Source: Geosiphon pyriformis uo1
Lineage: Eukaryota > Fungi > Glomeromycota
Length of the DNA stretch: 64,000 bases
Assembly: GCA_016748015.1 (NCBI GenBank)
Contig: JAAOMT010000566.1
Location: forward strand, 186,001-250,000
Direction of reading: 5' to 3'
The stretch's first letter is position 1. Every line of letters starts with the position of its first letter. The position numbers and the translations under genes are program-made. The notes under the pieces were generated by a model. That model was given only the letters and a program-made list of their open reading frames with translations. It had not been told where the DNA came from and ran no database searches. Shown here in pieces: positions 12,901 to 56,201 of the stretch.

Positions 12901-13399
12901 CTCTTTTTTGGGAATTTTGGATGAAGAAGAGAAAAAAGTTTTTTTCTTTACACAAAATTATAAAGTTTTTTTTTGTTTATTTTAAATAAATTTATTATTT
13001 TATTAATTAAATTATATAAATTAGTTAAATAAATTTTATTTTAAATTAAATTGGTTTTTTTTGGTTATTTTTTTAATACAACTTTATAATTTTGGATTAA
13101 AAAGTTTGTAATATATATTTTTTGTTTTTAGTAAACTTTTTTTGCTTAATTAAAAAATTTAATTTTAATTATTTTTTTTGATTAACTATTATATTAATTT
13201 AATTTTTTGATTAAATATTAAATTAATTAATTTTTAATTTTTGTAATACTCAATTATTAATAAAAATTTTTAAATTTAATAATTATTATATATTTTTAAT
13301 TTAGCTTATTAATTACTTTAATTTATATTATTATTATTATTATTATTTTTAAATTAATTAAGATATTATTAATCAAAAAAATTTGCTACTTTTGTTTTA

Positions 13400-14574: not shown

Positions 14575-15768
14575 TCATGTGTCTGCCATCTCATTCTCTT
14601 CACATTGGTCAATATCTTCATCATTGTCCTCACTCCAACAATTATCGTCCTCATGACCTTTGGGGGAAGAATTCCATGGGCAATCAACAGGTTGAGGTGT
14701 TACACTCCGATGGCCATCATCATCACCGGTTGGGTTCGAGTTAACAGCATTTGTACCTACAGCCCCTAAATGCATCAATGTCATAACAGCCTCCATTGGG
14801 TAATCTGCTTCGATAAGACTTTGATCAAGTTCAGTTTCACTTGATCTTGTTGCCTTTTTGAGAAATTTATTTGTGTAAGGCTCTATTTTTATAGCGCGCT
14901 TTGAGAGATTTGTGTCTTGATAAGTCATGGGTACAAATGAAGAAAATTCTGTATTTTCAGCTTTTGCATTTGAAAAATCAACCCCAAATTCTTTCAGACT
15001 TGCAGCTGCTAATCCGTTGATTGCGTTCAGATCATTAAATAATCCGGTCAAGGCTGCAGCCGATGCCATTGCTTCACCTAATAGATCGTCACTGAGAGGC
15101 GAGGTACTACAGCTAATTTCAGAGTATTGAAGATTTTGATCGACAACATTTTGCCTTTTGATTTCTTGCTTTTTAATCTTTATATTATTTCTACGGACTC
15201 CAGGTTTATCGATCGCTTTCAAGATTTCAATGGGCTCGATTACTTGAATATCATCAGACACTCGACCAATCACATTATTTGTATTTGCTTCAGGACCCTC
15301 TGTCGCCCTATTTGAACTAGTATGTTCATTTCCTTCGTTTTTTAAATCATTCATTCTGCGTTCTTTTTCATAACGTTTTTCTTGACGCTTCTTGAACTCT
15401 TCTTGTAACCATAATCTCCTGGCCTCACTATCTTCTTTAGCAAAAAGCTTGCAAGCACGTTTATTCAGGCGAGCTCTAAGATCGTTATCTTTATCTATGT
15501 GCCAAGTTGAAAATTAAACTGTGATTAAATGATAGCACAATTACAAATGCGGTAATAAGAATCTTCTATCTGAATAAATAATACTTCTATCCGCGTTCAA
15601 TTTTCTCCAACGTTTTTTTCTTTCTCTATTTTCGGTTCGAATTTTGATAGCAATTAATTCTCTCTTATATTGTTCATTAGAGATATTAATTTCATGATTG
15701 ATTGCCTTTGGGGGTATATCAATCAAGCTCAAGTCGGAGCTAGATCCCTTTTCTTTTTTAATCCTCAT
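14575..15768 (-). CDS. DUF3020-domain fungal protein, 2 exons (15768-15585, 15494-14575), ~367 aa
   Basis: Removing a 90-nt GTATTA..CATAG intron (15584-15495) gives IRTENRERKKRWRKLNADRNKDNDLRARLNKRACKLF, the DUF3020 signature; frame stays open to TGA; an upstream exon cannot be excluded. Confidence 0.85.
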
Positions 15769-19309: not shown

Positions 19310-20013
19310 GAGATTACCTCATTTGTAACACGAGGTTCCATTTCGAGATTAAATACTTTCGATAAACTTGAAATTATTGTTTGCTATTGTAATGAAACAA
19401 TATTTTTCCCTCGCAGTATCCGAGCATCTGCGATACAAAAGTTGTAAATGTGTCAACGGTTATGTAATATTTACTGCGTAATGCCCTATCAATATTGATA
19501 ATTTAAATTATTAATTAGATTTTATACATAAATTATATTGTATTGTATTAGATAGATCATATTAAATAAATAAAAATCATTTTTATAATAAACTAATTTC
19601 TATATAATTAGTTATCTATAATAATAATATATATTGTTCAAAATATTTAATATTTAAATAACTGTTATATTTTTAAATTTAGTTATTGTATAGTTTTTTA
19701 CTAATTTGTGTATTTTATTAATATAAATAATTATTATATGTATATATATATATTATTTTTTATTTAATAAGTAAAATTCAATTACATATTTTTATGTTTT
19801 AAATTTTAAAAAATATTAAAAAATATTTTTTTCATTGATCCCCTGGCCATTATGAAAACAGAAGATTTTTTAAGAGAAATCACTTTATTTTATCACTTTT
19901 TTCCTTGTTCTATTTAAGTCATTTCTTCTAATATATTTCCTTTTATTGCGATGAAACCAGTAGGCTTGTCTGTTGGAGTTTCTGGCTCGGTTTTGGCTGG
20001 TTTGGGAACCTGC

Positions 20014-20986
20014 TGTTACTGGAGGTTTTTGGTCTCTTTTCTTAAATGTTGGTAATGTTGATTTGCTGTGAATTCCCATTCTCAGGAAGTTGTTGAACCT
20101 CCAGTGACTGAATTTATCTTCAAATTATCTCCTATAATTTGAACTGCTGGGCTTATAAGTGGAATAGCCAATTCCTTGCCAGTTATTTTATGTAGTTATA
20201 TTGTAGTAAATGTCAACTTTTTTCCAGAAATTGCTTGTCTGGAAGCTCACTAAAAATGTGTAGTTACTTTGCTGTAAAAGTCAACTCTTCTACAAGAATC
20301 TCGTCTGTAGGCTACCCTAATAATTGTAATAAGAAAAGAAAAGAAAAATAAAAGAAATGTAAAAGAAATAGGATTTTATCAAGGAAAACATTTTTTATCT
20401 AGGCCTGGAGTCACTAACAGTTTACTGAAATTGGTAGCTAATTAATTTCAAAACATTAGTTGGGTTTTGAGAATTTTCCAAGTGCAATAATTAAAGAATT
20501 TTGGTTTTTTTTTGAATTATTTGATATTTATTTTTTTTTGTGTGTAAGAATGGTTCTAAGTGATAAATCTAAAGTAAGATACATTTTCTTAAAGAGAAAA
20601 GCTCTTCTTTTATACAACTTGTTGTAGTACTAGTCTATGAACTTGCACTTTTTCTCTTTGCTCAAATTTCGGCAAATTAAAGACACATTTTGATGAACTA
20701 CAAGTTATTTCGCTGAACTATTGATTAATTTGGGTGAACTATTCATAATTTTGGCGAATTTCTGTAAATTTCAGTGAATTTTTGAATATTACAAAGTTCA
20801 GAGTATTGTGTAATTTAATCATCCTACTTTCTGTTATACTAATTAGATCATTTTAATTGAATCATGATATGTAATAATTGATTAAATAATAAATGATAAT
20901 TTGAAATGATATTAATATACTAATTAATTATAGAAATTATAAGAGTAATTTCATGCTAATTAATAGCTAAAATTCTACTAGTAACA
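20014..20986 (-). repeat. 3' LTR of Gypsy A
   Basis: Direct repeat of 28918-29932; preceded on the minus strand by PPT GAGGAGGAG (20987-21002). Confidence 0.95.
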
Positions 20987-21674
20987 TAATCTCCTCCTCA
21001 AGACTGAGCTCTGTCGAAGTCCAAGCACTATCTGTAATATTGAGATAGTGATCCAAAATAATTGAAGTAATCTGGTCTGAAAATTGTTAAAATTCTAGTT
21101 CTGTAAGTTTGCCAATGTATTAGACTTTCATTGGTTGCAGTATTGGATTTTGTAGAACATTTTCACAAGTATTAAACAAATTATAGAGTCTAAAAGCTGC
21201 TCTAAGTTTGTAATGAGTGTTTGTTGGTCCAGCTGCTGTTTTGAATTCATTGTGAATTTGTTTTTGTATAGCTTTAGGAGTAAGATTTGTTGCTTCAAGT
21301 TCTAGTTTTCGTTTATAAAGTGTCTTTCCAATGTGAAAGTATTTATAGATAGGGGTGTGTTTATTGTTCTGTTCATTGAGAAGTAGTAGAAGTTTTTGTT
21401 GTATTGTAGCATTTGATGGAATGTTGATAAGGGCAATTAAAAAATTTTCTTTTAGTGCTTGCTTCAAAAGTCTTGGTAACCTATTTTCAGAGTGACTTCT
21501 TGTTTTTTTTCTATAAGAGTGATAGTTCTGTGAATGATTTGCTACTAGCACTGTGATTTCTTTCTGAATGTAATTAATTTGACTTCCATTAATCGTTATA
21601 GATAAGTCAGAAAGTGTTTTTAAGACTAACATTAACTTTTGGGATATTTGTTGAATATTTCGGGAAATAATCAT
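20967..21674 (-). pseudogene. Gypsy A ORF3, unknown helical protein (~235 aa ancestrally; two CAA>TAA stops)
   Basis: ORF 21120-21674 continues in frame through the PPT into the LTR; homologous to the stop-free frame 33133-33576 in Gypsy B. Confidence 0.85.
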
Positions 21675-21819
21675 GACAAAATTGACTAATTATGAAAAGA
21701 GAGAATAAGGAAAATTATTTTTGAGATATGGGATTTTTATTTGTTTTTGGGTTTGGGTGTTTTTGTAATTTATTTACTATTTTTGTCTTTGTGTTTTTAT
21801 TGAAGAATTATTGTAAAAT

Positions 21820-23205
21820 TTAAGTGTTCAAGTTTGGTTGTTGTTCTATTATAATTATTGGTTCTAAATTTTGGAGAATATCTTTAGGATTAATTAAAAG
21901 GGAATGTGTACCAATTTGTGGAATTAATGGTTCAGGATTGTTTCTGGAATGATAGTGTTTCAATCTGTCTCCATGTGCAACTTTTGCTAGTATTTTGTCA
22001 TTAAGTCTTAATTTGTATGATCCATTGCCTAGAATTTCGTAAATATAAAATGGTCCATCCCATTTGTTTTCAAATTTTCCACTCCATTGTTTTTTAGCCT
22101 TAGTTTTGTGTAAGAGAACTTTATTTCCAACTTTAAATTCGTTGGTAATAGGTGGTAATTTGTTGTCATGTCTTTCTTTTTGTTGAGCTTGGGAATGTTT
22201 AATATGAGTTGCTGCTATTCTTCTTTTTCCTTCCAGTGTACTAAAAAGAGTGTAGGCCCTTCTTTGGAGTGTTTCTTGAAAGTTTTCTTCATTGATTGGT
22301 TGCACTGGATATGTTTCCACTGTGAAATTAATTAGTAATATTGCTGTTTTTCCATAAGTAAGATTAAATGATATGTGTTTTGTAATATTTTGTTTTAGTG
22401 TTCTGTATGCTAGTAACACTGATGAAATAAAGATATCTCATTTCTGCTCAAAGTCTGTTGAGACTTTGGCTAGAGATTTACACAATGTTCTGTTGAAACG
22501 TTCTACAAGTCTATTTGTTTGAGGGTGATAAAGTGATGATAAAAGTCTTTTGATATTGAATTGTTCACAAATTTTTTGTATCAAGTTGTTCACAAAATGT
22601 GTTCCTTGATTAGATAAGAGTTCAATTGGGCATTCATGTCTACAGATAATGTCTTTATAGATGAAATTTGCTACTAATTTTGCATCTGCTCTTTGGATGG
22701 CTCTAGCTTCAGGCCATTTGGTAAAATAATCCACTGCAACTGCAATATAACAATTTCCTTGGGTTGTAATAGGTAATGATCTGACTAAATCAATTCCAAC
22801 TCTGTCAAAAGGTTGTCCAACTTTAATTGGATTTAAAGGTTCTGTGGGGCGAGTTCCTTCTCTTTTTTGACAACTATCACAAGATTCTACATATTGTTGA
22901 ATGTTTTTTTGCATGTGAGGCCAAAAATAATGTTTAAGGGTTCTTTGAATTGTTCCATCTCTTCCCAAGTGTGCTGAAAACGGATCTGTGTGCATGTTAT
23001 ATAAAATTGTTTCTTTTTCATTCTCTTGTACTAATCTGAGTGGTTGTTTTGGGTTTCTGTAATTTTTATAATAGATTTTGTTCTGGTGTATAAAATATTG
23101 TTTTGATTGGTGTTGTAAACGATGTTTTTTACTTGGAAACCAGTTTTCTGGCATGATAAGAGTCTCTAAATAATTTTTAAGATTGCTGTAATTTCTGAGA
23201 TCCAT
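21820..23205 (-). pseudogene. Gypsy A integrase (HHCC, DDE core, GPY/F), separate ORF with its own ATG
   Basis: MHTDPFSAH..CDSC; GIDLV, LSNQGTHF, LVERFN; WDGPFYI; no chromodomain. Confidence 0.93.
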
Positions 23206-23262
23206 TCTTATTTGGTTATTCTGTTGGTAAGTTGGTAAGTTGTGGTGGAATTGTTGTTGGTA

Positions 23263-26200
23263 TTAATTTTGTCTCATTCTTAAGAGGCTATCAACATTGG
23301 TATGTAGTTTTCCTGGTTTGTGATGTACAATATATCTGTAGTCTGCTAGGAAGTCATTCTATTGAGACTGTTTGGCACTTTGTTCAGTTTTCTTTTTATT
23401 GAGCCATTTGAGGCCAATGTTGTCCATTATTATGTTAAATTTTTTTCCATTCTTCAGATATTGTTGAAAATGTTTAAAAGCCCAAATAACTGCAGCAGCT
23501 TCTAATTCAGTTGAGCCATATTTTAGTTCTATTGGTTTGAGTGTTCTATTAGCATAAGCAATGACTTGTTCTTGCCCATTTTCATCTACTTGTAATAAGA
23601 TGGCACCAAATGCTATGTGTGAAGCATCAGTGGCTAGTTGAAATTGTTTGTTAAAGTCTGAGTAAGCAAGAACTGGAGCTGTTGTCAGCTTTGTTTTGAG
23701 GGTTTCAAATGCTTTTTGTTATTCTTCAGTCCATTTATATGGCACATTTTTATTGGTGAGATAATTGAGTAGTTTGGCAATTTCTGAAAATCCTTTGATG
23801 AATTTTCGATAATAGGAGGCTAATTCTACAAATCCTTGTAGCTCTGTGGTATTTTTTGGAGTTTGGAAGTTTTTGACAGCACTAATTGTTCCAGGGTTTG
23901 GTTTGACTCCATCTTTGCTAACAATGTGTCCAAAAAAGATTAAGCTTGTTTTTTCAAAGTGACATTTCTCAATATTCAACTTCAATTTTGCTTTCCGTAA
24001 TCATTGAAAAACTTCTCACAGATGAATAAGATGGGCTTCAAAGCTTGGTGAGTACACATCAGTGTTATCAAGATAAACAACTACTGATTGCCATAAGAGT
24101 CCTTTATATACAACATTCATGAGTTGTTGGAATGTTGCTGGTGCATTGCAGAGTTCAAAAAACATAACATTGAACTTATAGTTTCCTCTTTGGGTGGTGA
24201 ATGCTGTTTTGGATCAGTCTTTTGGGTCCATTTCGACTTGCCAGTATCCACTTTTCAAGTCTAAAGTTGAGAAGAACTTGGCTTTTCCTAGAGCATCTAG
24301 CATGTCATCAATTTTTGAAAGAGGGTAGGCATCTCCAATTGTAATATTATTCAGTTGTCTATAATCAACACAGAATCTGATTTTTCCGTTTTTCTTTTTA
24401 ACTAAAACTACTGGTGAGGCCCAAGGACTTCTTGATGATTGAATCAATCTATTATTGAGCATTCTTTGGACCTCTTCTCTGATAAATTGGTGGCTGGCAG
24501 GTGGTATTCGATAGACTTGTTGATATTTTGGTGGAGCATCTCTTGTATGGATCTGATGTTGAACAATGTCTGTTTTTCCCAAGTCATTGTTGTCTTTTGC
24601 AAATATATCTGCAAATTCAGCTATCAATTGTTTCAATTGTCTTTGTTGTTGAGATTCTAAGGGATCCATGTTAATTTAAGAGAGTTTTTCTTCCAAAAAG
24701 TAGTAGTTTTCAGTAGTGAAAATAATATTTGGATTTGGGAGTAGAGTGTGTCTTACAATTTCGATGAAATTAGAGACAATTTGAGGGTTTTCATCTTGAA
24801 AAATATTGCTGTGTATGATTCTAATCTCTAGTTTGTTTAATAAAACAATAGGGTAATTATTAGGGTTGTAGAATATAACTTGAAATATTCTCATTCCTTT
24901 GGAAATATAAACGTTTGGAATTGAGATTTCATGCTTTAAACAGATTTGTTCATTGGATTCAAAAATTTGTTGTGTGGTGGTGGGTTTTGAGCAAGTATAA
25001 ATTTCGTAATGTTCTCCAAAAGGTGAAATGGTAATTGGCTGGGAAAGTTGAAGAATCTGGTGAGATTCATTTTGTGTATTAAGAGCTATGTTTACTGGAA
25101 TTGTAAATCGTCCAGTTGAACCAAAATCTTGAGTTTCTCTTTAACTTTTTCCCAATTGTTCTCTGTTGTTTACTGATTGTAATCTCGAAATGTTGATTAA
25201 GGGTAAGTAAATTGCTTGAGCAATTTTTTTAGCATGTTCAATTTTGAATGGTTTGTCTGTCTCGTTTTGTAACATAATGGTAATGTCTTCAGTGTATCCT
25301 GCATCTATAACTCCTCCTCTAATATTGATTCCTTTGCTTGCCAATGATGATCTGAAGGCAATTTGAACTATTGCTCCTGGTGAAATTTCAAGAGCAATTT
25401 TAAGATTGATTTTTGTCAAGGACTTTGGTTGGAGAACCAAAGTATTTTTTTCTGGGTATCTTAGGTCATATCCAGCATCAATTTTGTGTGCTTTTTCTGG
25501 TCTGATTTCTTGGCCATGGTTGTCAAAATATTTAAGTTGTAGAGGTAGTTGCTTTTCAAGAAAATAGATGGAAGCAGTTGGTAGTTCTTTTACTAGTTCA
25601 GATACTCCAAATTCAATTTCATTTTCATCATTCTCATCTGGCAGAGGAATGCTAAGAGCATAACATTCTAAACACCATTGGTCATCACAAGGCATAACAC
25701 ATTCTTCACACAATTGAATGTTCATTTGCTCTAATCGTTGAATTTGAGCTTCTTTGGTCAGATATGTATGGCTTGCAATTTGGTAGTAGGTTTCTACTTT
25801 ATCTTCATAATCAAATCCAGCTAATTCTATGGTATACTTAATATATTCAGCTTCTTTCATGTGGTGGACATCTTTTTGGATAGCTCTATTGATTAATGCC
25901 ATTGCTAAGTCAAAAATCATTTCAGCATCATGAGAGTAGTAGTAAAGTTTATTGAAAGCACTGTTGTATGCTGCATCAAATAGTATTCCTCTTCTGACTT
26001 TTTCCGAAATTGATAAAGCATATTGACAGGTTTGATCACATACTTCTCTTCTCATTGCTACATCAATCCAATTGCATTCTTCTGGTAGCATTTCTCTACA
26101 TGTAAGGCAAAGAGTTTTGTCCTATTTTCCACTTTTCTTTGGGGATCCAATTCGTTCTCTATGGCATGCCTTGCAGAAGTAACAAGTACAAGTTTCATAT

Positions 26201-27150: not shown

Positions 27151-28916
27151 AATTTTGGGGTGTGAATTGGTTATATTGAACCAATCTTCTTGCTGGTACT
27201 TGATATTGTTGAGTGGGTAGTGTCTGATATAGCTGAATTGGTAAAGGTTGCTGATATTGTTGCTGTATTGGTTGTAGAGCTAGTGGATAGTAACTGTTTT
27301 AATTTTGTGGTCTTGGTGAATAATAGGTTGGTAGTGGAGATTGGTAATAGGATTGTTGTGGTAAAGAATAACATTGATTACTCCTGTTTTGTTGGTCTCT
27401 TTGTAATTTCCTACAATCTCGTTTCCAGTGTCCTGGAATTCCACAATAATGACAATTTTGAGATTGGTTGTTGGATGGTGATCCAAAATTGTTTTGGTTG
27501 CATCATTGTAGGGGTTGATATCTTTGTGGTTGTTGTTGCTGTTGTTGTTGATTTGTGAAGTAGCTTTCAACTTTTTTTGTGAGTTGGTCTATTTTCTTTT
27601 CAGCTGCTGAGCTGGTTTCTCCAATTGCAAAGTTTACAAGCTTGGTGTGATTTGCTTCTTCCATTGCCATTTTATAGTTCTTTACATGTCTAATAGCAGT
27701 TGCTAAGTCTGCTGGAGCATGTGGACGGGCTTTCTTAATTAGTTTGTCTTTTAATCCTGCTATAAACTAATTCAGAATTTGAGCATCAGAATAGTAGTCA
27801 TTGGTTTCCAATTGTCGGATTCGTCTAAGAAGTTTGTTAAATCTTCCAAGATAGGTTATAACAGTTTCAGATGTTTCTTGTTTGATATTGCAAAAGTGGT
27901 TTCGGAGAGTGATAGAGATATTGTTGTAGAAAAACATCTTTGAATGCTTGCCAGTTTTCAAATGGTTCTTCTAAATTTTCAAATCATTCTTCTGCTGTTC
28001 TTTGGAGAAAGTAGGGAATTGCTTTGAGCATTCTTGCTGCAATCCAACTATTTGCATCTTCTGCTTTTTGAACTTTGTTAAGCCATTCTTAAGGACTGGT
28101 ATCATTGTTTTTACCAGTGAATTCTGGGATTTTTGCAATGTAAGCAGTTGCTATTTCTTCTTCATTTTCTGTAATTTCTTCTGGTTCTGATTCAGTTTCT
28201 TCACTTTTCAAGCTTTCTGAATGATTACTTTCATTTTCTTGTAAGTAATCAATGATATTGGCACTTGTTGATATTGGTTCCTGCTGTTGAGTAGGGTTTC
28301 TAGGTGACTGAAAATCTTCTGGTTTGGAGAAACAGTTGAGTGGTGAATTTAGTGTTTGTGGTTGAACAAGTAAAATTAGAAATGGTGTAATAGAAAGTGG
28401 TAATTTGACACTAGTTCCTTGTTTAGGTGTTTACAAGTGTTTGGCAGGTGTCTTTTGTAGTGTTGGAGTGTTTGGAGTGGTTCTTGAGTATTGCTTCAAT
28501 CTTTGTTTGCCTTTGTTGCTTGTTTCTGTTTCTAATTCAAAGTCAAAAGAGTATTTAGACCGTACTGGGTATTTTTCTTCACAATACTCAATAATGTTAA
28601 AATTAAGTTCTTGGAAGTAAGTAGCAAGTGTTTTACTGTTCAGGTCTTCTGTTCCCAATTGTAAATAATGCACTAAATTATTGTAGAGGTTGCTTCTAAC
28701 TTCTGAAATGTTGTAGTTGCCAAAAAGATAATTGTTGATGCGGTTTTCAATGTATTGGTATACTGATTTCTTGACAACTTCAATTCCGTCTGGAATGTTG
28801 AATCTTTGCTTGTAGTAGATGTAAATTGACTGGTAATACTCTAAAGTTGCTGTGTTTAGTGTGGTTACCACTTTGAATTTTGTTGTTGCTGTGTTATTTC
28901 TGTGGGAAAGCACCAA
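27150..28916 (-). pseudogene. gag: Gypsy A gag with N-terminal extension, capsid domain and CCHC knuckle
   Basis: IAKIPEFTG..EWL capsid start ~28150; CHYCGIPGHWKRDC ~27420-27455; Q/N-rich tail. Confidence 0.88.
28900..28915 (-). promoter_or_regulatory. Primer binding site TGGTGCTTTCC (tRNA ending ...AGCACCA; Thr/Ile/elongator-Met candidates)
   Basis: TGG begins 2 nt after the 5' LTR; the same TGGTGCT occurs in B (40665-40680) and C (51003-51016). Confidence 0.8.
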
Positions 28917-28917
28917 A

Positions 28918-29932
28918 TGTTACTAGAGGTTTTTGGTCTCTTTTTTTAAATGTTGGTAATGTTGATTTGCTGTGAATTCCTATTCTCAGGAAGTTGTTGA
29001 ACCTCCAGTAACTGAATTTATCTTCAAATTATCTCCTATAATTTGAACTGCTAGACTTATAAGTGGAATGGCCAATTCCTTGCCAGTTATTTTATGTAGT
29101 TATATTGTAGTAAATATCAACTTTTTTCCAAAAATTGCTTGTCTGGAAGCTCACTAAAAATGTGTAGTTACTTTGCTGTAAAAGTCAACTCTTCTACAAG
29201 AATCTCATCTGTAGGCTACCCTAATGATTGTAATAAGAAAAAAAAATAAAAATAAAAAAAATGTAAAAAAATTAGGATTTTATCAAGGGAAACGTTTTCT
29301 ATCCAGGCCTGAAGTCACTAACAGTTTACTGAAATTGGTAGCTAATCAATTTCAAAACGTTAGTTGGGTTTTGAGGATTTTCCAAGTGCAATAATTAAAG
29401 AATTTTGGTTTTTTTTTTGAATTATTTGATATTTATTTCTTTTTGTATATAGAAATGGTTCTAAGTAATAAATCTAAAGTAAGATACATTTTCTTAAAGA
29501 GAAAAGCTCTTTTTTTATACAACTTGTTATAGTACTAGTCTATGAATTTGCACTTTTTCTCTTTGCTCAAATTTCGGCAAATTAAAGATACATTTTGATA
29601 AACTACAAGTTATTTCACTGAACTATTGATTAATTTGGGTGAACTATTCATAATTTCGGCGAATTTCTGTAAATTTCGGCAAATTCCTTATAAATTTCGG
29701 CGAATTTCTGTAAATTTTGGTGAATTTTTGAATATTACAAAGTTCAGAGTATTGTGTAATTTGATTATCCTACTTTCTGTTATACTAATTAGATTATTTT
29801 GATTGAATTGTGATATGTGATAATTGATTAAATAATAAATGATAATTTGAAATAATATTAATATACTAATTAATTATAAGAATTATAAGAGTAATTTCAT
29901 GCTAATTAATAGCTAAAATTCTACTGGTAACA
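28918..29932 (-). repeat. 5' LTR of Gypsy A
   Basis: Direct repeat of 20014-20986; ~40 bp longer because of two extra ~20-bp TTTCGGCGAA units; TATAAAA box ~29510-29519 on the minus strand. Confidence 0.95.
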
Positions 29933-32184
29933 CTGCCTAAATGCTAAAAAAAATTGTTTAGATACTGTTTACTCTCGCGATGTGTCCTACAAAAAACCAA
30001 AGAAGCATATAGTTAGTGTTGTGGTCAATTCATCTATAGGCCCTCTGAGCCTGGAAGATATTGGTAGTAATGGCATCAAGCCTGCAGTGTTTTGGGGCAG
30101 TGAAGTTGACAGCATTGCCAGCAATATAAGCAATTTATCAGATGTTGAAAATATGATGAACATGGTGGCCAAAGAGATCAGCTATGCAGAATTAGGTAAG
30201 AACGATGATATGAATGAAGTTACACTAAGGAAAACTTGCATTTGAATGTACATGCTAGGAAATCTATTAAAGCAACCTTCTTTCAGCTGTATAAGCAATG
30301 ACAATAATAAGCTAGTAATTCCTTCTTGGATAATTTTGGGATCTAATGAGCCACTGCTGATTGTGTCACATACTGCAGATAAATAGAGCTTCAATTCGTC
30401 AAAATTCTTTGCACTTGATATTAATCTTTCAGCTGTACCTGGTAGGACTATTAGTGATAAGTTGATCTGTATGAAAAAAAAATTTTATCAAGTGGATGGC
30501 TTTGGAAGAGCTTCTACTCCTTCAAGATTCCCAGGGATTATCAGATCCTCATTTACTTCTGAATCTAGCATGAATAAGATGAAAGAATTGGTTATCCATA
30601 AAAAAATTGTGGTAAATAATGATCTTAAAAGAGTTAGCAGCCATTCAGATAAGAAAATTGTTGTCAAAGAGATTCTGGTCAATCTTCCTAAATTGGCTGT
30701 AGAATCTGTTTTTTCTAAGTTTGGAAAAATTGTATCAATCAAGATGCAATTGATTGGTCTGTGGCAAAAAGCTTTAGTGGAGTTTGAATTATCTGAAATA
30801 GCTGATTTGGTCGCAGTTAAATGGTCTGTCTTCATAGAAAAAAATTTTGTTTGTGTGGCAAAAGCTGTTGATGATAAACAATCATAGATTTCCAGAGATG
30901 TGTATTGGGCATTGCTTTATACTTTTCCAATTGGTATTACAGCTCATGATTTTTCTGATTTGTTGAAATTATATGGTAAAAAGACTTGTTTCATTGGCCG
31001 TAATCTCAATTTATATGTGCATGATAGATGTGTGATTGTGTGTTTTGTTAATGAGGCATTTAAATTGGCTGCTATTGGTTCTACTTCAGTATTTAAGAGT
31101 GTAAATTTGCACTGGACTAGTCTTTCTTTGGCCTGTTGTGCTCATTGTAAACAGTTTGGTCATATTTCTACAGGGTGTTCATTAGGTGAGAATTCTGGTG
31201 TTTGTGGTAAGTAGATGATAACTTCTCAAGATCAGATCCATTTGGCCAACATATATAAGAGGAAGCAGGTGCCAATCATTTGCCCAGTTTTTTTTGGTAG
31301 AAAAACTTGGGCCCAGATTGCTGGTGGTTTTTCCCCTCATGTGAGTTTGTTGAATCTTTTTGGTACTGATTCATCTTTAGGTGCAAAACCTGTTTCATTG
31401 GTTTCTGACTCTCTTGGTGATTTTTGTTTGGTTGATCAATTAGCCTCTCTGAAATGCTCTTTAGGGCTCTTAACAAATCAGGTTTCAATTATTATGAAAA
31501 AATTGAGCTTTGTGGAATTGGTGCCTCTGGTATCTAAACCTTATGTCCCTCTTTTGGTTGTCTTTGCACCTGTTATGTCTAATTTGGATTTAGAAATGGC
31601 CATGAATGATACTCTGCTGTCTCCTCTTTCCTCTCTTTCAGTTGTTGTTGCAGACTCAGTTACTAACTTTAATTCAAGTAGTTCTAAAGTTCTGACCACC
31701 AAAATAGGTGGTTTAGAATCCAAAATAGTGGCTTTAGAGGTGTCAGTTGAATCTGTTTTGAAAAGATTGGATTGTTTATGCTCTGGTTTGAGTTCATCAA
31801 CTTCTCTTACTTTCTAATGAGTGACTTTGTGTGGAAATTTGCAACATGTAATGTTTGAGGTATTAATGTTCCTGCCAAGCAGAAGGACATTATCCATTGG
31901 CATAGAGATTCTGGAAATTTGGTTTCGATAATTACAGAGACAAAGCTGAGATCTAGCAACAGGTTTTGGATTAGGGATAAGTTTGATGAAGTCAGGGTCT
32001 TTTCATCTGGGTTGGACAAGAGTTTTCTTGGTGCTGGTGTCACAATCATTATGAACACTTCTCTAACTCATCATGTTTGTAAGGTTTCTGAGATGCCTGA
32101 TCAGCTCCTTTTAGTCAAGCTATTATTCAAAAATAAACTTTCTGTGTCAATTTTGGGACTTTATACTGAGGTGTTCCTGGCTGT

Positions 32185-33164
32185 TGTTACCGGAGGTTTT
32201 TGGTCTCTTTTCTGTAATGTTGTTGATACTTATTTGCTGTGAATTCACGTTTTCTGGATGTGGTTGAACCTCCAATAACTGAATTTATCTTCAAATTATC
32301 TCCTATAATTTGAACTGCTGGGCTTATAAGTGGAATGGCCAATTCCTTGCCAGTTACTTTATGTAGTTGCATTGTAGTAAACGTCAACTCTTTCTCAGGA
32401 ATTGCTCATCTGGAAGCTTATTAAAAATGTATAGTTACTTTGCTGTGAAAGTCAACTCTTCTATAGGAATCTCGTCTGTAGGCTACTTTAATGATTGTAA
32501 TAAGAAAAGAAAAGGAAAATAAAAGAAATATAAAAGAAATAGAATTTTGTTAAGAGAAACGTTTTCTATCCAGGCCTAGAGTCACTAACAGTTTACTGAA
32601 ATTGGTAGCTAATCAATTTCAAAATGTTAGTTGGTTTTTGGGGATTTTCTAAGGGCAATAATTAAAGAATTTGGTTTTTTAAATTATTTGGTATTTATTT
32701 CTTTTCATGTGTGTAGAAATGGTCCTAAGTGATAAATCTAAAGTAAAATACATTTTCTCGAAAAGAGAAGCTCTTCTTTTATACAACTTGTTGTAACACT
32801 ATTCTATGAACTTGAACTTTACTATTTTCTACAATTTCGCTGAACTAAAGATACATTTTGGCAAACTACAAGTTATTTCTGCAAACTATTAGATATTTCG
32901 GTGAACTATCAATTATTTTAGCAAATTTCTATAAATTTTGGCGAACTTTTGAATGTTACATAGTTTGGGGTATTGCATGATTAATCATTGCAATTAGGTT
33001 ATATTTGTGTTGTATACAATTTGGGTTATTAATTAAATGATAATTTCGGACATTTTTTGCTAATGTAATAAGTGATAATTTGAAACAATAATATATGCTA
33101 ATTAATGATAGGAATTATGAGATAGTTTCATGCTAAATCATATCTCTAATTTTGTTTGGTAACA
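32185..33164 (-). repeat. 3' LTR of Gypsy B
   Basis: TGTTACC...GGTAACA; direct repeat of 40683-41642. Confidence 0.95.
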
Positions 33165-33576
33165 TAATCTCCTTCTCAAGACTGAGCTCCATCGAAGTCC
33201 AAGTACTGTCTGTTATTTCCAGATAATAATCCAAAATTATTGAAGAAATTTGGTCTGAAAATTGTTGAAATTTAAGTTTTGTGAGCTTTCCAATGTATTG
33301 AATCTTCAAAGGTTGAAAAATTGGGTTTTGTAGTATGTTTTCACAGATGTGGAATAGGTCATAAAGTCTAAGAGCAGCTCTAAGCCTGTAGTAACTGTTT
33401 GTTGATCCAGCTGTTGTCTTGAATTTGTTGTGGAGTTGTTTCTGAATAGCTTCTTTTGTGAGGTTTGCTGTTGTAAGTTCCAGTTTCCATTTGTAGAGTG
33501 TTTTTCCAATGTGAAAATATCTATAGATTGGAGGATATTCAGTGTTTTCCTCATTGAGACACAGTTGAAGTTTTTG
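33133..33576 (-). CDS. Gypsy B ORF3 C-terminal 147 codons (5' part lost in N gap)
   Basis: Manual translation QKLQLCLNEENTEYPPIYRYFHIGKTLYKWKLEL...RAALRLYDLF...YIGKL...WTSMELSLEKEIMLPNKIRDMI*; no stops; absent from the ORF track because it lacks a start codon. Confidence 0.85.
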   Translation of the reverse strand, partial: QKLQLCLNEENTEYPPIYRYFHIGKTLYKWKLELTTANLTKEAIQKQLHNKFKTTAGSTNSYYRLRAALRLYDLFHICENILQNPIFQPLKIQYIGKLTKLKFQQFSDQISSIILDYYLEITDSTWTSMELSLEKEIMLPNKIRDMI

Positions 33577-33577
33577 T

Positions 33578-33597
33578 NNNNNNNNNNNNNNNNNNNN
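33578..33597. other. Assembly gap (20 N); by comparison with A about 0.4 kb is missing
   Basis: N run; flanks correspond to A ~21400 and ~21815. Confidence 0.9.
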
Positions 33598-33599
33598 TA

Positions 33600-34987
33600 A
33601 ATTAAGTATTCAGATTGAAAGGTTGTTCAATGACAACTATTGGCTCTAAGTTTCAGGAAATATCTTTGGGACTGACCAAAGGGGAATGTGTACCAATTTG
33701 TGGAATTAATGGTTCAGGATTGTTTCTGGAATGATAGTGTTTCAAACAATCTCCATGTGCAACTTTTGCTAAGATTTTGTCATCAAGTCTTAGCTTGTAT
33801 AATCCATTGCCTAGGACTTCATAGATAAAGAATGATCCATCCCATTTATTTTCAAATTTTCCACTCCATTGTTTTTCAGCTTTAGTTCTGTGTAAGAGAA
33901 CTTTGTTTCCAATTTTGAATTTATTGGTGACTGAAGGCAATTTGTTATCATGCCGTTCTTTTTGTTGAGCTTGGAAGTGTTCAATATGGGTGGCTGCTAT
34001 TTGTCGTTTTCCTTCCAATATGCTAAGTAAAGTGTAGGCTCTTCGCTAAAGCAATTCTTAGAAATTGTTTTCATCGATCAGTTGTGCTGGATATGTTTCC
34101 ACTGTGAAACTAATTGGTAACATTGCTGTCCTTCCATAAGTTAAATCAAATGGTGTGTATTTCGTGGTATCTTGTTTTAATGTCCTATATGCTAGTAACA
34201 CTGATGGAATAAAGAGATCCCATTCTTGCTCAAAATCGGTTGAGACTTTGGCTAATGACTCACACAATGTTCTGTTAAAACGTTCCACAAGTCTGTTTGT
34301 TTGTGGATGGTAGGACAAAGACAGAGGTCTTTTGACATTGAATTGTTCACAAATTTCTTGTATCAGGTTGTTCACAAAGTGTGTTCCCTGATCGGATAAA
34401 AATTTAATTAGATATCCATGTCTACAAATAATGTCTTCATAGATAAAATTTACTACTGATTTTGCATCTGCTCATTGAATGGCTCTGGCTTCAGGCCATT
34501 TAGTAAGATAGTCTACAGCTACTGCAATATAACAGTTTCCTTAAGTGGTGATAGATAGTGGTCTGACTAAATCGATACCAACTCTGTCAAAAGGCTGTCC
34601 AACTTTAATTGGATTTAAAGGTTCTATAGGGCGAGTTCCTCCTCTTCTTTGACAACTATCACAAGATTTGACATATTTGTGAATGTCTTTTCTCATTCGA
34701 GGCCAAAAGTAGTATTCTAGTGTTCTTTGGGTGGTGCTATCTTTTCCGAAGTGTGCTGATGAAGGATCTGAGTGCATATTGTATAAAATGGTCTTTTTTT
34801 CCTGTTTTTGTATTAATCTGAGTGGTTTGGTTGGGTTTTTGAAATTTCGATGATAGATAATGTTGTTGTGTAGAAAATATTGTTTGGCTTGTTGTTGTAA
34901 CCAATGTTTTTCATCTGGGGACCAATCTGTTGGGATTGTTAATGTCTCCAAATATTGTTTGAGATTGTTGTAGTTTTCGGGGTTCAT
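33600..34987 (-). pseudogene. Gypsy B integrase, separate ORF in a different frame from pol
   Basis: ORFs 34541-34987, 34058-34375 and 33653-34018; HHCC, DDE core, degenerate GPY/F. Confidence 0.92.
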
Positions 34988-35036
34988 TGTTTGTTGTTTT
35001 GATGCTGTTAATTCAAATGGATGTTGGTTTTGTTTT

Positions 35037-38000
35037 CTAATCTTGCCTCATTCTTGAGAGACAATTAATGTTGGTGTGGAGTTTTCCTGGTTTGTGGTGT
35101 ATGATGTATTGGTAATTAGCTAAAAATCCTGTTCATCGGGTTTGTTTTGTGTTCAGCTGGGTGTTTTTGTTTTGAAGCCATTTAAGTCCAATATTATCAG
35201 TGATAATATCAAATTCTTTGGGTCTGAGGTAAAAGTTGAAGTGATGTAGGGCCCAGATTACTACTGTGGTTTCTAATTCTGTTGCAGGGTAGTTCTTTTC
35301 GGCTGGCTTTAATGTTCTACTAGCATAAGCAATTACTCACTCATTTTCATTGTCATCTAACTGTGATAGGATGGCACCAAAGGCAGTATAAGAGGCATCA
35401 GTTGCTAACTGGAATTGGTTGCTGAAATCTGGGTAGGTAAGAATTGGAGCTGTTGTGAGTTTTTCCTTAAGTATCTCGAAAGCATTTTGGTGTTCTTCTG
35501 TCCATTTGTATTCGACATTTTTAGTAGTGAGCTGGTTGAGGGGTTTTGCAATTTCTGAGAATTCTTTGATGAATTTTTGGTAATAGGATGCTAATCCAAT
35601 AAATCCTCTTAATTCTGTGGTATTTCGTGAAGTCTTAAAGTTCTTGACAGTACTGATTTTTCCAGGGTCTGGTTTAATTTCATCTTTGCTAACAATGTGA
35701 CCAAGAAAAGCTAAACTTGTTTTTCCAAAGTAGCATTTTTCAATGTTTAGTTTCAATTCTGCTTTCCGTAATCATTGAAAAACTTCTCACAGGTGAATTA
35801 AATGTAGCTCAAAAGATGGTGAATAAACATTAGTGTCATCAAGATAAACTACTACTGATTTCCAAAGGAGGCCTTTGTAAACAACATCCATGAGTCTTTG
35901 GAATGTTGCTGGTATATTGCATAATCCAAAAGGCATTACATTGAACTTGTAATTTCCTCCTTGAGTGGTGAATGCTGTTTTGGGGCAGTCTTTGGGATCC
36001 ATAGCAACTTGCCAGTATTCATTCTCTAAATCTAATGTTGAAAAGTATTTGGACTTTCCAAGGGCATCCAACATGTCATCAATTCGGGGAAGAGGGTAGG
36101 CATCCCTAATGGTGACACTGTTGAGTTGTCGGTAATCAACACAAAATCGTATCTTTCCATTTTTCTTTTTAACTAGGACTACAGGTGAGGCCCATGGGCT
36201 CATTAATGGTTGAATAAGCCCATTGTTAAGCATCCATTGTACTTCTTCTCGGATAAATTGGTGACTTTCTGGGGCAACTCGGTAGGCTTGTTGTCGCCTT
36301 GGTTTGGCATCTCCTGTATAGATTTGGTGTTGAACCAAATCAGTTCTTCCTAAGTCATTGTTGTTTTTGGTAAAGATGTCAGCAAATTCTGCAATTAGCT
36401 CTTTGAGCTGGGTCTGTTGTTGTGGTTCAAGTTGTTCCATGTTGATTTGAGATAGTTTTTCCATGACAACATGGTAGTTTTCGGAGCTGGAGTTTGGGTT
36501 GGTTTTTGGTATTGAATGTCCAATAATTTCAGAGAAATCGGGGACTGTTTGGGGTAATTCTTGTTGAAATATATTACTATAAATAACTCCAATTTCTAAA
36601 TTATTTAATAAAATTATGGGGTAATTATTGGGGTTGTAAAAAGTAACTCGGACTTTTTTTGTTTCTTCTGGAATATAAATGTTTGGAATCGAAATATTAT
36701 GTTCCAAGCAGACTTGTTCATTGGACTCAAAAATTTGTTGTGTGGTTGTTGGCTTTGTGCAAGTGTAGATTTCCGGATGTTCTCCAAAGGGTGAGATGGT
36801 AATCGGTTGTGGAAGTCTGAAAATCTGGTGAGATTTGTTCTGTGTGTTAAGAGCTATATTAACTGGAACTGTGAATCGTCCAGTTGAACCAAAATCTTGG
36901 GTTCTTCTATCGCTTTTTCCTAATTGTTCTCTTTGATTGACTAGTTGTAAACCCGAAATGTTGATTAAGGGTAGGTAAATAGCTTGGGCAATTTTTTCAG
37001 CATGTTCGATCTTGAATAGTTTGTCAGTTTTATTTTGAAGCATCACTGTTATGTCTCCAGTATATCCAGCATTGATTATTCCTTCTCTGACATTGATTCC
37101 TTTGCTTGCCAGAGAGGACCGGAAGGCGATTTGAACCATTGCTCCTGGCGGGATTTTGAGTGCAATTTTGAGGTTGATTTTTGTGAGAGATTTGGGTTTG
37201 AGAACAAGAGTATCCTTGCCTGGATATCTTAAGTCATATCCAGCATCAATTTCGTGTGCTTTTTCAGGTTTTATTCCTTGTCTGTTGTTGTTGAAGTATT
37301 TAAGTTGTAAGGCAGGCTGATTTTTGATAAGATAGATGGGTGTTGTTTCAATTTCTTCTGTTTCTTCAGGTTCTCCGAATTCAATTTCATTCTCATCATT
37401 TTTGCTGGACAAGGAGATACTAAGAGCATAGCATTCAAGACACCATTGTTCATTGCAAGGCATAATGCATTCTTCACATAGCCTAATGTTCATTTGCTCT
37501 AATCATTGAATTTGAGCTTCTTGGGTCGGGTAGGTGTGACTTGCAATTTGGTGGTAGACTTCTACTTCATTTTCATAATTGAATCCAGCTAATTCCATAG
37601 TGTATTCAATGTATTCTGCTTCCTTCATTTGACGAACATCTTCTTTGGTAGCTCTATTAATTAATGCTATTGCTAAGTCAAAAATCATCTTGGCATCATG
37701 AGGGTAGTGATAAAGTTTGTTGAGAGCACTATTGTATGCTGCATTAAAGGGTGTTCCTCTTTTTACTTTTTCTGAAATTGATAAAGCATATTGGCAAGTC
37801 TAATTGCAGATGCCTTCTCTCATTGCTACATCAATCTAATTGCATTCTTCTGGTAGCATATCTCCACAAGTCAAACAAGGGGTGTTGTCTCATTTTCCAC
37901 TCCTTTTTATTAGATGGTCCCATCACTCTCTGTGGCAAGCCTTGCAGTAATAACAAGTATGATTCTCATATTCTTCTTCAGGTGAAATGCAGGCTCTCAT

Positions 38001-40660
38001 TGATGATAGTTTCTTGTGGCAGTCCTTACATTTAAGGAGAATATAGGGGTGTTGTTTCCTTGATTTGGGTTTTGAGTAAGGTATATTCCATCCAGAGGTT
38101 TCGGGTTTAATGTGTGGGGTAAAATGTTTTTGTTCTGTTTCATCAGCCCAGTTGGACGTTGATCCAAGAGCTATGAATGTTTTGATTATTGGTTTTTCTT
38201 CTTCTGGTTCAAATTCAAAAGCTGGGGCTTTTTCAGAGCGTTTGTTGAATGTACCACAAATGGCAGGTACCTGGGCGTGTTGTCCTTGGTAGGAGATTGT
38301 TAACTCTTGTGTTTCCCAATTCAGATTAGCATTGGCTTTTTGAAGCCAATCATTTCCGACGAGAGCTTGGTACTGGGGTGTGTCCATTACAAGAACTTTG
38401 ACTGGAATGGTGATTCCATCAAGAGTGAATGGAAAATTGTCAATTTCTCCTACTGGGGTCTTTTTCATGCCATCGGCAGTGACAATTACTGTTTAAGCTG
38501 GTCGGTCAACATTTTTTTTCAACTGTTGTATTAACTGGTAGGTAATAATGCTTCTGGCAGATCTACTGTCTAGGATCAAGTGAATTGGCTTTCCTTTTAC
38601 TTCAGCTTCTGTGTACATTGCAGTGATGGCTTTTTGCTCATTAGCCGCTGTATTGCTAAGCAAGAATGGTGATTCATTTGCTTCAAATTCAAAAGGAAAG
38701 ATATTAGAGAGATTGGCGTTTTCAGCAATTCGGGCTGGTGGAATAGTGGTGTGATTATGAGAAGGGTTTTGTTGTTGTTGTGCTGCAGCTCTACCTTCCG
38801 AGAATGCAGTATGGTGAAAATCCTGTTCTTTTGGCATTGTTAAATAACTGGGTTGAGTGTGATAATGGTTGGGTCTTGGTTGAGTGGTATTTTGGAGAAC
38901 TAATTGGTTGTTCGAACTAATTCTACTGTTGTTTACTTGGTATTAGTTTTGTGGTGTGAATTGATTTTATGTAATCAGTCTTCGAGCAGGTACTTGATAA
39001 TGTTGTGTGGGTGGTTGTTGGTATTGCTGTTGGATTGGTTGTGGGGCGGACTGATAATAGTTATTTTGGTATTGGGGTCTTGGTGGATAGTAAGCTGGTG
39101 GTGATGGTTGATAATAAAATTGCTATAGTGGAGAGTAACATTGATTACCCCTATTTTATTGGTCTCGTTGTAGCTTTCTGCAATCTCTTTTCCAGTGACC
39201 AGAGATTCCACAGTAATGGCAATTCTGGGGCTGGTTATTGGAAAGTGGTGCAAAGTTATTTTGATTTTGTCTTTGGGGTGGTTGATATCTTTGTTGTTGT
39301 TGGTTGGTAAAATAGTTTTTGATCTTCTTTGTAAGTTGGTCAATTTTTTCCTCAGCTACTGAGCTGGTTTTTCCAATTGCCAAATTTACAAGTTTTGTAT
39401 AATTGGCCTCTTCCATGGCCATTTCGTATTTTTTCGCATGCTGTATGGTAGAGTTTAAATCTTCTGGCGTGTGTGGGCAAATCTTTTTAATTAGTTTATC
39501 TTTTAGACCAGCGATAAATTGATCCAAGATTTGAGCATCAGAATAATAATCATTTGTCTCGAGTTGGCGAATCCGTCTGAGATATTTGTTGAATTTCCCA
39601 ATATAAGTCATAACGAATTCGGAGAGTTCTTGTTTGATATTTTGAAAACAATTGCGAAGAGTGATGGAAGTATTATTGTCGGTGAACTGTTCAAGGAAGG
39701 CTGCTTTGAAAGCGTTCCAATCATTGAATGGGGTGGCCAGGTTTTCAAACCATTCTCCTGCTGTTCCTTTGAGAAAGTATGGAATTGTTTTTAACATTCT
39801 GGTGGCATTCTATCCATTTGCATCTCCGGCTTTAGTAACTTGGTCGAGCCATTCTTGAGGACTGGTCTCAATGTCTTCTCCATTAAAGTCAGGGATTTTT
39901 GTGATGTATGTTGTCATTTCGTCTTCTTCGTTTTCACTATCTATTGATTCTTCTTCAGTTATTTTAGAGTTGTTTTCTTCGTTTGCTGCTGTCTCAGAGT
40001 GTTCACTTTGATTTTCAGCTAAAAAATCAAGGAGATTGGAACTAGTTTGAAGGGGTTCTTGTTGTCTGGTGGGACTTCTGAGTGATGTAAAATCTTCTGG
40101 TCTTGTAAATTGATTCAAGAGTAAATTAGATGTTTGTGCTTATGCAAGTAAAGCTGGAAAAAGTGTGACAGTAAGTGGAAGTTTTGAGCTGGTTCCTTGT
40201 TTAGGTGTTTATAGATGTTTGAATGATATTTTGGGAGTATTGGGTGTTGTGTGAACAGATCGGTTATCTTTTTGTCTTTTGTTGCTACTGGTTTCAGGTT
40301 CAGATTCGAGTTCAAAGGTAAATTGTGCGTTTGCAGGATATTTTTCTTCACAGAATTGAATGATATTATAATTGAGTTCCTCAAAATAAGTAGCACAAGC
40401 TTCAGCACTAATGTTTTCTGATTCAGTGTTGGAATAGTGTAGTATGTTCTCAAGAAGATCTCTTTTAACTGTTGTAATGTTATAGTTCCCAAAGAGGTAG
40501 TCATTAATTCGATTTTCGATGTATTGAAAAAGTGTTTTCTTGAAAGCTATGATTCCGTCATGTATTTCAAATCATTGTTTGCAGTGTGTGTAAATTGATT
40601 GATAGTATTCTAAGGTTGTGATGTCTGAGGCGGTCACCACTTTGAATTTGTTATTGTGTT
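35037..40660 (-). pseudogene. Gypsy B gag-pol in a single frame: N-extension, CA, NC, PR, Cys-rich domain, dUTPase, RT (YLDD), RNase H
   Basis: ORFs 39156-39797, 38493-38837, 37923-38468, 37503-37688, 35787-37493 and 35337-35756 share one frame, broken only by point stops. Confidence 0.92.
36879..37310 (-). CDS. dut: dUTPase domain inside Gypsy B pol
   Basis: DAGYDL, RSSLA, GIINAGYTG, IAQAI, RRTQDFGSTG in ORF 35787-37493, in frame with RT. Confidence 0.93.
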
Positions 40661-40682: not shown

Positions 40683-41642
40683 TGTTACCGGAGGTTTTTG
40701 GTCTCTTTTCTGTAATGTTGTTGATACTTATTTACTGTGAATTCACGTTTTCTGGATGTGGTTGAACCTCCAATAACTGAATTTATCTTCAAATTATAGG
40801 AGATAATTTGAACTGCTGGGCTTATAAGTAGAATGGCCAATTTCTTGCCAGTTACTTTATGTAGTTGCATTGTAGTAAACGTCAACTCTTTCTCAGGAAT
40901 TGCTCATCTGGAAGCTCACTAAAAATGTGTAGTTACTTTGCTGTGAAAGTCAACTCTTCTACAGAAATCTCGTCTGTAGGCTACCTTAATGATTGTAATA
41001 AGAAAAGAAAAAGAAAATAAAAGAAATGTAAAAGAAATAGAATTTTGTCAAGAGAAACGTTTTCTATCCAGGCCTGGAGTCACTAACAGTTTACTGAAAT
41101 TGGTAGCTAATCAATTTCGAAATGTTAGTTGGTTTTTGGGGATTTTTCAAGGGCAATAATTAAAGAATTTGGTTTTTCAAATTATTTGGTATTTATTTTT
41201 TTTTGTGTGTGTAGAAATGGTCCTAAGTGATAAATCTAAGGTAAGATACATTTTCTTGAAGAGAGAAGCTCTTCTTTTATACAACTTGTCATAACACTAT
41301 TCTATGAACTTGAACTTTGCTATTTTCTACAATTTCACTAAACTAAAGATACATTTTGGCAAACTACAAGTTATTTCGGTGAACTATCAATTATTTTGGC
41401 AAATTTTTATAAATTTCAGCGAACTTTTGAATGTTACATAGTTTGGGGTATTGCATGATTGATTATCGCAATTAGGTTACATTTGTGTTGTGTACAATTT
41501 AGATTATTAATTAAATGATAATTTCGGACATTCTTTGCTAATGTAATAAGTGATAATTTGAAACGATAATATATGCTAATTAATAATAGGAATTATGAGA
41601 TAGTTTCATGCTAAATGATATCTCTAATTTTGTTTGGTAACA
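40683..41642 (-). repeat. 5' LTR of Gypsy B
   Basis: Direct repeat of 32185-33164; followed on the minus strand by PBS TGGTGCTCTTCC. Confidence 0.95.
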
Positions 41643-49200: not shown

Positions 49201-49490
49201 CTTGTCTAGCAGTGTAGTTTCTATGTTGTCAACTGGTGTTGTCCATATGCTTAGTGTTATAGAATCTTTTGCTGTTAGGTTTGGTAGATACAAGTTGTGT
49301 CATTTTTTCTTTGGTTTGGGTGGTAATGCTTTTATTACTATAGATGTATAGTGTTGCTTTGTCTGGCCCAAATGGCTGGTCACATGTAGTCTGTACATAA
49401 GCTGTATTTAGTTAATTCCATTTAGTTTGGTTCTATGTACTAGATAGCAGTTGGGCTTCATTCATAAAACTTAAATAAAAAAAAATAAAA
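46262..49490 (+). mobile_element. LINE copy L4, 5'-truncated within RT
   Basis: AFIDNT, RNase H VYTDGS..SDSQ, C-terminus ending at 49351, 3'UTR, A-tail; 13-bp TSD AAAAAGTTTAATA (46249-46261/49489-49501). Confidence 0.92.
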
Positions 49491-55920: not shown

Positions 55921-56201
55921 AAAATACATGAATATATATAATAAAAATTTGGTAAATTGTATTAAAAAATTTATTTAACTTATAAAAACTATATTATATA
56001 TTAAATTTAAATAATTTTTATTTAAAATTTAAATTACAAAAAAATATATTCTATTTGTTTATATAAATCTTGTTTTTAATAAAACTTTAATATATACTTT
56101 TAAAATTATAACAAAAATTTATTTTTAAATTGTAATTTAATTAACAAATATTAATCAACTATTTTAAAAATTTTGCAAATATATTTAGCTATAATTTTAA
56201 A

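Follow-up and report, generated by a model that had tools for sequence, protein, structure and literature searches.

A conserved third gene between integrase and the 3′ long terminal repeat of Ty3/gypsy retrotransposons in Geosiphon pyriformis

Fungal retrotransposons with long terminal repeats (LTRs) are usually depicted as gag-pol elements only. Lentiviral nef and foamy-virus tas/bel2 are 3′ accessory genes that overlap the polypurine tract (PPT) and U3. A published scheme places the PPT within nef (PMC3907037). Extra sense open reading frames (ORFs) between pol and the 3′ LTR, termed aORF-3S (Vicient and Casacuberta 2020, PMC7264820), and dUTPase-bearing elements of fungi (PMC2864245) and rotifers (PMC5408684) are already known kinds, and Novikova et al. 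2010 (PMC2864245) depict certain fungal elements with an "add. ORF" of unknown function. Here we describe a 64,000-nucleotide stretch of the Geosiphon pyriformis genome, hereafter the window (contig JAAOMT010000566.1, positions 186,001 to 250,000), in which two dUTPase-bearing Ty3/gypsy LTR retrotransposons, A (29932-20014, − strand) and B (41642-32185, − strand), carry an ORF at the env position. This frame, ORF3, is a real third gene between integrase and the 3′ LTR.

ORF3 shares with aORF-3S its sense orientation, its position between pol and the 3′ LTR, its presence in many copies and a degree of conservation like that of the other genes. By contrast, aORF-3S are described as env-like, some with a transmembrane segment, from plants and insects (PMC7264820), whereas ORF3 is fungal, has no transmembrane segment and is unrelated in Pfam. 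The bdelloid elements Juno, Vesta and TelKA (PMC5408684) resemble A and B in having a dUTPase between protease and reverse transcriptase (RT) and a family-specific ORF3, which can be 210-230 amino acids long; however, the bdelloid ORF3s are Env, transmembrane proteins, GDSL esterases and DEDDy exonucleases, none of which was detected in the Geosiphon protein. The elements of Postia, Phanerochaete and Tuber (Tmt1) are likewise fungal Ty3/gypsy elements with dUTPase between protease and RT, but that source, in the part cited, surveys Dikarya and other chromoviruses (PMC2864245). Literature searches over freely accessible texts returned no description of the ORF3 protein family.

In A, ORF3 occupies 20967..21674 (− strand) and comprises 235 codons, with its last 20 nt inside the 3′ LTR. 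It is not an open frame: two in-frame TAA codons, not mentioned in an earlier note made from the sequence alone, interrupt it at codon 185 (21122-21120) and codon 196 (21089-21087). It is 84% identical to an intact 235-residue relative, P0001. In B, the C-terminal 148 codons are present at 33133..33577 (− strand), the last 32 nt lying inside the 3′ LTR. The claim that the B copy has no stops is correct for these 148 codons; the remaining ~90 first codons, together with the spacer and the acceptor region, are lost in an assembly gap of 20 N (33578..33597), and B is therefore uninformative on the start or splice site of ORF3. The two products are homologous, as had been claimed, with the quoted motifs present. 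In A, the integrase stop (21822-21820) and the ORF3 ATG at 21674 are separated by a spacer of 145 non-coding nt (21675..21819, − strand), consisting of an A-rich stretch, a pyrimidine tract and a TTAG that ends at 21686. When genomic contigs were compared (run X1; only differences above 10% were tabulated), indels were frequent in the spacer (13, 3 and 19 contigs), and ORF3 had only a compensating pair, in single contigs. A 353-nt contig of run X2 spans 20994-21313 and was set aside as evidence; among the contigs listed for X2 and X3, none reaches across the acceptor.

We then compared ORF3 of A and B over 137 aligned codons. The differences at codon positions 1, 2 and 3 numbered 31, 10 and 50, respectively; most are silent, in line with the earlier note's view that many changes are silent or conservative. 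The ratio of nonsynonymous to synonymous divergence (dN/dS) was 0.16 (95% interval, 0.08-0.27) unweighted and 0.25 (0.15-0.41) with transition weighting at kappa 4. The same test, unweighted and at kappa 4, gave 0.14 and 0.22 for the integrase C-terminus, 0.14 and 0.24 for dUTPase, and 0.05 and 0.14 for RT; three other integrase pieces gave 0.13-0.66. These figures likely understate constraint because neutral decay since insertion is included. A ratio near 1, which the earlier note had named as the outcome that would speak against selection, was not found between these two copies. These results indicate that ORF3 is under purifying selection, comparable to that on dUTPase and the integrase C-terminus.

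A homologue search with the ORF3 of A yielded 267 candidates, of which 188 were hits. Inspection covered the best 120 of the 188: every one is from G. pyriformis and annotated "hypothetical"; 22 have 239 amino acids, 3 have 235, and 33 have 221 or 225, starting at the second Met, and the tail encoded by the PPT and LTR ends 73 of the 120. Two intact types, of 235 (A type) and 239 (B type) amino acids, are 66% identical to each other. A profile search of 1.84 billion representatives yielded 34 matches, of which 5 were distant, comprising two metagenome proteins, P0147 (234 amino acids, E 4e-15) and P0149 (230 amino acids, E 8.5e-12), and Geosiphon lineages C and D; a second profile round returned 59 proteins. 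There are thus four further lineages beyond A and B. Except for the A-B pair, six representatives show pairwise identities of 19-37% with a common layout of ~230 amino acids. Gene models fusing the integrase C-terminus to ORF3 account for 17 of 203 collected proteins, and because 14 of them are lineage D models (predicted gene models), the position after integrase is shared at 23% identity. P0147 and P0149 carry the same PPT/LTR-like tail. Judged from these alignments, ORF3 constitutes an old, multi-lineage family. At least 188 database entries likely represent this transposon gene rather than host genes. A third gene has thus been retained in a very abundant lineage, with selection on it matching that on dUTPase and with relatives of just 19-37% identity.

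Relatives outside Geosiphon were also sought. No named homologue was found there in the searches of proteins and of viral and prokaryotic contigs; scans of the latter two with P0147 and P0149 gave no relative, and a search with the P0149 core returned itself alone among 98 candidates. In an Atlas comparison, the top match of both queries was a 98-member Mucoromycota cluster of 190 amino acids (0.93 and 0.94), a tentative lead with weak recognition. One metagenome locus (L001, from 181 pattern matches) was rejected, as its 22 matching C-terminal residues arise by chance; the contig is unrelated and carries no LTR element. By our own reading, the region of that contig around the match (10001-10066) is eukaryotic, with a WD40 gene resembling HIRA and an aminotransferase-like gene.

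The six representatives were examined for features of an envelope protein. The maximum Kyte-Doolittle hydropathy over 19 residues was 0.44-1.29 in all six; by hydropathy alone, no transmembrane segment or signal peptide was evident in any of them, in agreement with the earlier note. None has a furin site (R-x-K/R-R), and cysteines number 1-3. On these features, the ORF3 product is not an Env. The env position and the broken or incomplete state of the window copies would suit an env gene in decay or an open frame free of selection. However, pol in these copies is broken to an equal degree, length and layout are kept down to 19-37% identity, and the dN/dS far below 1 and the hydropathy and furin results already contradict this explanation, which we regard as barely credible.

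A model of the protein built from 34 sequences was of fair quality (pLDDT 72.9, pTM 0.61) and, as had been suggested, mostly helical. A previous model, restricted to close copies, was of low quality (pLDDT 42.9), and its Foldseek result was discarded. The 34-sequence model begins with a short helix and two strands (residues 1-37); a basic linker, disordered, occupies 40-62, and the rest is a helical core, with pLDDT mostly >80 over residues 81-210. The core is predicted to span residues ~61-210 and to contain two helices joined by a conserved G-x-T-N turn. Apart from hydrophobic residues, the conserved positions are P53-Y54, G116, K138 and the turn G149-x-T151-N152, which leads to helix 153-167; five or six of the six lineages share G149, T151, N152, K138 and P53-Y54, which are structural or turn residues. 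No conserved catalytic set of acidic residues or His was found across the six lineages. Basic clusters follow the PY in four of the six lineages, and lineage D has one further along the linker.

Next, known families and folds were searched. Pfam, PHROGs, NCBIfam and PDB sequence searches gave nothing credible, the PHROG matches being weak and to unknown families. Matches to FtsQ (PDB, E 0.04; NCBIfam, E 5e-4, with 19.5 bits against a cut-off of 366) arose for lineages A and B only and were rejected. A structural search of 48,161 chains gave a best Z of 5.7, to the helical domain of PNPase (root mean square deviation 2.1, 59 aligned residues), and none reached 8. With the N-terminal part barely covered, the search on this model neither identifies the ORF3 fold nor shows a new one. 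The ORF3 protein thus matches no family or fold searched. A match to a known retroelement domain, the second outcome named beforehand as contrary, was not found in Pfam scans, Foldseek or structural comparison. Together with the dN/dS, the intact relatives and the lack of membrane features, this supports the earlier description of ORF3 as a selected non-Env accessory protein of unknown family.

The same searches bear on the possibility that ORF3 is a particle or movement protein, which would coat the element RNA or move particles along the coenocytic hypha. Besides its location in the env slot, the second rank in Atlas for both queries is a cluster of closterovirus coat proteins (0.92 and 0.93). 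The shared features number only 150 and 156 of 256, against 170 typical of true members, and recognition of the queries is below threshold. Furthermore, the 50 best structural matches include no coat of the potyvirus, potexvirus or closterovirus type, and the sole filamentous-virus chain among them is archaeal (Z 4.4); Pfam gives no backing either. We consider such a role quite improbable.

One family deserves mention as a possible origin. DUF1016_N is the helical N-terminal domain of YhcG and is thought to bind DNA. The ORF3 core might descend from this bacterial domain, which an endobacterium or symbiont would have supplied, and would then bind DNA. Profile-profile alignment was colinear over 98 columns (ORF3 109-223 against DUF1016_N 34-136 of 137) and scored 26.8; the reversed control reached 12.8, and none of 29 block-shuffled controls exceeded 22.4. 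In Pfam, DUF1016_N (PF17761) matched 2 of 34 members with a best E of 0.037, well short of the cut-off. However, the hhalign probability was 16.7%, and because the family was picked from 24,736 at P = 0.0015, the match is not significant. Against Escherichia coli YhcG alone, the probability was 0.1%, and the ORF3 profile returned nothing from 201 genomes of one bacterial phylum, a scan without a positive control. This descent is doubtful, although it is compatible with the regulatory function proposed below.

The frame of ORF3 continues through the PPT (EEEI in A, EKEI in B) and beyond the border of the 3′ LTR, whose initial TG belongs to an ATG codon. In A, the PPT and an upstream conserved DNA motif (20987..21018, − strand) are overprinted by the final ORF3 codons. 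Synonymous divergence (dS) in the last 14 codons was 0.07, compared with 1.09 in the remaining codons; these codons are therefore conserved as DNA. The claim that the PPT is coding thus stands as to frame and extension into the LTR, but what is conserved there is the DNA. P0147 and P0149 keep ELSLEEEIMLP, or nearly so, though only 27-30% identical to A and B overall. In lineage D, the C-terminus is FAGAQF or a variant (19 of the 203 collected proteins), and the DNA of the PPT region in A and B reads, in another frame, FDRAQS-stop and FDGAQS-stop, respectively. We infer that lineage D is read in that other frame and terminates where the PPT begins. Read-through as a selected protein feature was rejected on both grounds, the constraint on the DNA and the apparent stop in lineage D. 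It is real but incidental, a by-product of stop-codon placement. As in nef and tas/bel2, a 3′-end accessory gene crosses the PPT into the LTR; in contrast to them, ORF3 has just 6-10 codons in the LTR, one lineage apparently stops at the PPT, and no sequence similarity was found.

We favour, tentatively and at somewhat less than an even chance, a reading of the ORF3 product as a nuclear protein that binds nucleic acid and regulates expression of the element itself, made from a spliced mRNA in the manner of Rev, CERV or Tas. A non-membrane protein that does not look enzymatic, with a basic linker and a strong acceptor-like site before its start, would best fit a regulator expressed from a subgenomic RNA. 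The pyrimidine tract and TTAG reported by the earlier note are present: the TTAG, with its last base at 21686, lies 11 nt ahead of the ATG, follows 19 pyrimidines in 20 positions and ranks best of 316 YAG sites on the minus strand of A, of which 3 have ≥17 of 20. In B, none of 280 YAG sites has ≥17 of 20, and the region matching the acceptor of A lies in the gap. The tract with its TTAG is a candidate 3′ splice site or internal promoter. Published accounts state that splicing typically generates the messages for ORF3s (PMC5408684) and that CERV, made from spliced mRNA of the Caenorhabditis elegans element Cer1, is needed for export of genomic RNA (PMC10309623).

Under this proposal, a transcript from the 5′ LTR would be spliced to the acceptor at 21686 to give a subgenomic ORF3 mRNA, whose product would enter nuclei, possibly other nuclei too in this coenocytic fungus, and bind element RNA or LTR DNA. 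It could then either enable export of unspliced genomic RNA, as do Rev and CERV, or raise LTR transcription, as does foamy-virus Tas. The Rev/CERV-like role is slightly favoured, since an element whose RNA undergoes splicing still needs its unspliced RNA to be exported. The likeness to CERV (PMC10309623) and to Rev of human immunodeficiency virus is to a functional model only, of a nuclear protein from a spliced mRNA acting in genomic RNA export; CERV is a large three-domain protein that has a Cys loop, whereas ORF3 has 235 amino acids and no conserved Cys set. If ORF3 regulates export or transcription, retrovirus-like regulatory complexity would have arisen also in a fungal retrotransposon.

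Several observations weigh against this regulator. Splicing into 21686 is plausible from the sequence, but no clear splice donor was identified, and a pyrimidine tract before the ATG is also compatible with a fungal internal promoter. The other two A sites with ≥17 pyrimidines are one site repeated in both LTRs. For nucleic-acid binding, the protein sequence offers weak hints, and the isoelectric point is acidic in two of the six representatives (5.4 and 5.9). Pfam scans did not relate the sequence to Rev, CERV or Tas, Foldseek with the ORF3 model returned nothing at E ≤ 0.001 in PDB or BFVD, and the best Z in the structural search is below the level reached by generic helical bundles.

A broader version would make ORF3 an old accessory-protein family that defines a "complex" lineage of fungal Ty3/gypsy elements, Rev/Tas-like and spliced from the env slot, possibly with a captured N-terminal domain of YhcG, and acting across the shared coenocytic cytoplasm. 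We hold this composite to be rather doubtful. If true, such a regulator would help explain how LTR elements reached ~41% of the Geosiphon genome and would be, as far as our searches found, the first in a fungal retrotransposon.

The A LTRs themselves contain, at 20317 and 29221 (− strand), a long pyrimidine tract with TTAG downstream of a TATA-like box; the matching positions in the B LTRs have TAAG or TAAA. This LTR site might serve as a splice acceptor for a leader or belong to a poly(A) signal.

The state of the copies is relevant to another proposal, that ORF3 is an anti-silencing factor protecting the element from host methylation or small-RNA control. The LTR pairs of both elements differ by 5%, nearly all transitions (47 transitions to 2 transversions in A and 43 to 6 in B); A and B are therefore old, dead copies. 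The observed/expected ratio of CpG is 0.18 and 0.37 in the elements, compared with 0.95 in the neighbouring host-gene region. The transition bias and CpG depletion suggest methylation-driven decay or decay like repeat-induced point mutation. In addition, LTR elements make up 41.2% of the G. pyriformis genome (PMC11952901), and the ORF3-bearing families have therefore been very successful. The heavy C-to-T change and this abundance favour the proposal. On the other hand, marks on old copies are uninformative about the job of the protein, and ORF3 has no similarity to a known suppressor or enzyme in Pfam, PHROGs or NCBIfam. We judge an anti-silencing function unlikely. As a separate observation, the LTR divergence is nearly all C-to-T or G-to-A, with a CpA context in 24 of 49 differences in A and 25 of 49 in B.

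ORF3 might instead be an integration-targeting factor that replaces a missing chromodomain and directs insertion into repeat-rich chromatin. In the C-terminal integrase frames of A and B, Pfam found no chromodomain and only SH3_Tf2-1. Furthermore, A and B are nested in one copy resembling a long interspersed nuclear element (LINE), and several gene models fuse ORF3 to LINE-like sequence. However, with two insertions examined, chance nesting is expected in so repeat-rich a genome, and targeting domains usually belong to the integrase itself. We find this function quite unlikely. The segments of the LINE-like copy that holds both elements are at 19646-20007, 29933-32184 and 41643-45981 (+ strand), and it aligns piecewise with other copies at 63285-60743 and 11169-9474.

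The window as a whole is AT-rich fungal DNA crowded with decayed retroelements. A and B are ~76% identical over 7.9 kb and are thus sister subfamilies. Their four LTRs are 960-1015 nt long and have the ends TGTTAC...GTAACA. In A, the 3′ LTR (20014..20986, − strand, 973 nt) is followed by the 4-bp target-site duplication GCAG, which also precedes the 5′ LTR (28918..29932, − strand, 1015 nt). In B, the 3′ LTR (32185..33164, − strand, 980 nt) is followed by the duplication ACAG, and the 5′ LTR (40683..41642, − strand) has 960 nt. A TT+TGG resembling a primer-binding site (PBS) lies directly after both 5′ LTRs. Thus, both elements have the TG...CA ends, target-site duplication, PBS-like site and PPT of Ty3/gypsy elements.

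The internal order by Pfam is gag with a zinc knuckle, a protease-like region, dUTPase, RT, RNase H and integrase, and the closest solved relative of the RT is Ty3 (E 9e-46). In A, integrase (21820..23262, − strand) contains H2C2, rve and a Tf2-type SH3 and has an internal stop, and the dUTPase, linker and N-terminal part of RT (24214..26121, − strand) are broken by stops and homologous to 35787-37502 of B, where Pfam matches dUTPase and RVT_1. In B, the stretch 33653..39809 (− strand) carries the series of pieces from gag (zinc knuckle) and protease-like through dUTPase, RT and RNase H to integrase, broken by stops and frameshifts.

Within 35787-37502, residues 351-413, in the interval between dUTPase and RT, match the end of a spumavirus protease model (E 1e-6). 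Among solved structures, foamy-virus Pol chains rank behind Ty3 and a polyprotein of caulimovirus type. A frame on the − strand (28431-28919 in A, 40209-40571 in B), which lies just after the PBS and upstream of the capsid-like gag region, is under purifying selection (dN/dS 0.15-0.38), has no Pfam match and has a TAA end at the same place in both elements. This frame probably corresponds to the N-terminal part of Gag, its stop being either shared or recurrent. Elsewhere in the window, translations at 918-12947, 41615-49605 and 56098-63078 were read as several decayed LINE-like elements whose frames resemble endonuclease, RT and RNase H, and a probable host gene exon lies at 14575-15513 (− strand; Pfam DUF3020/SPP41, E 6e-9).

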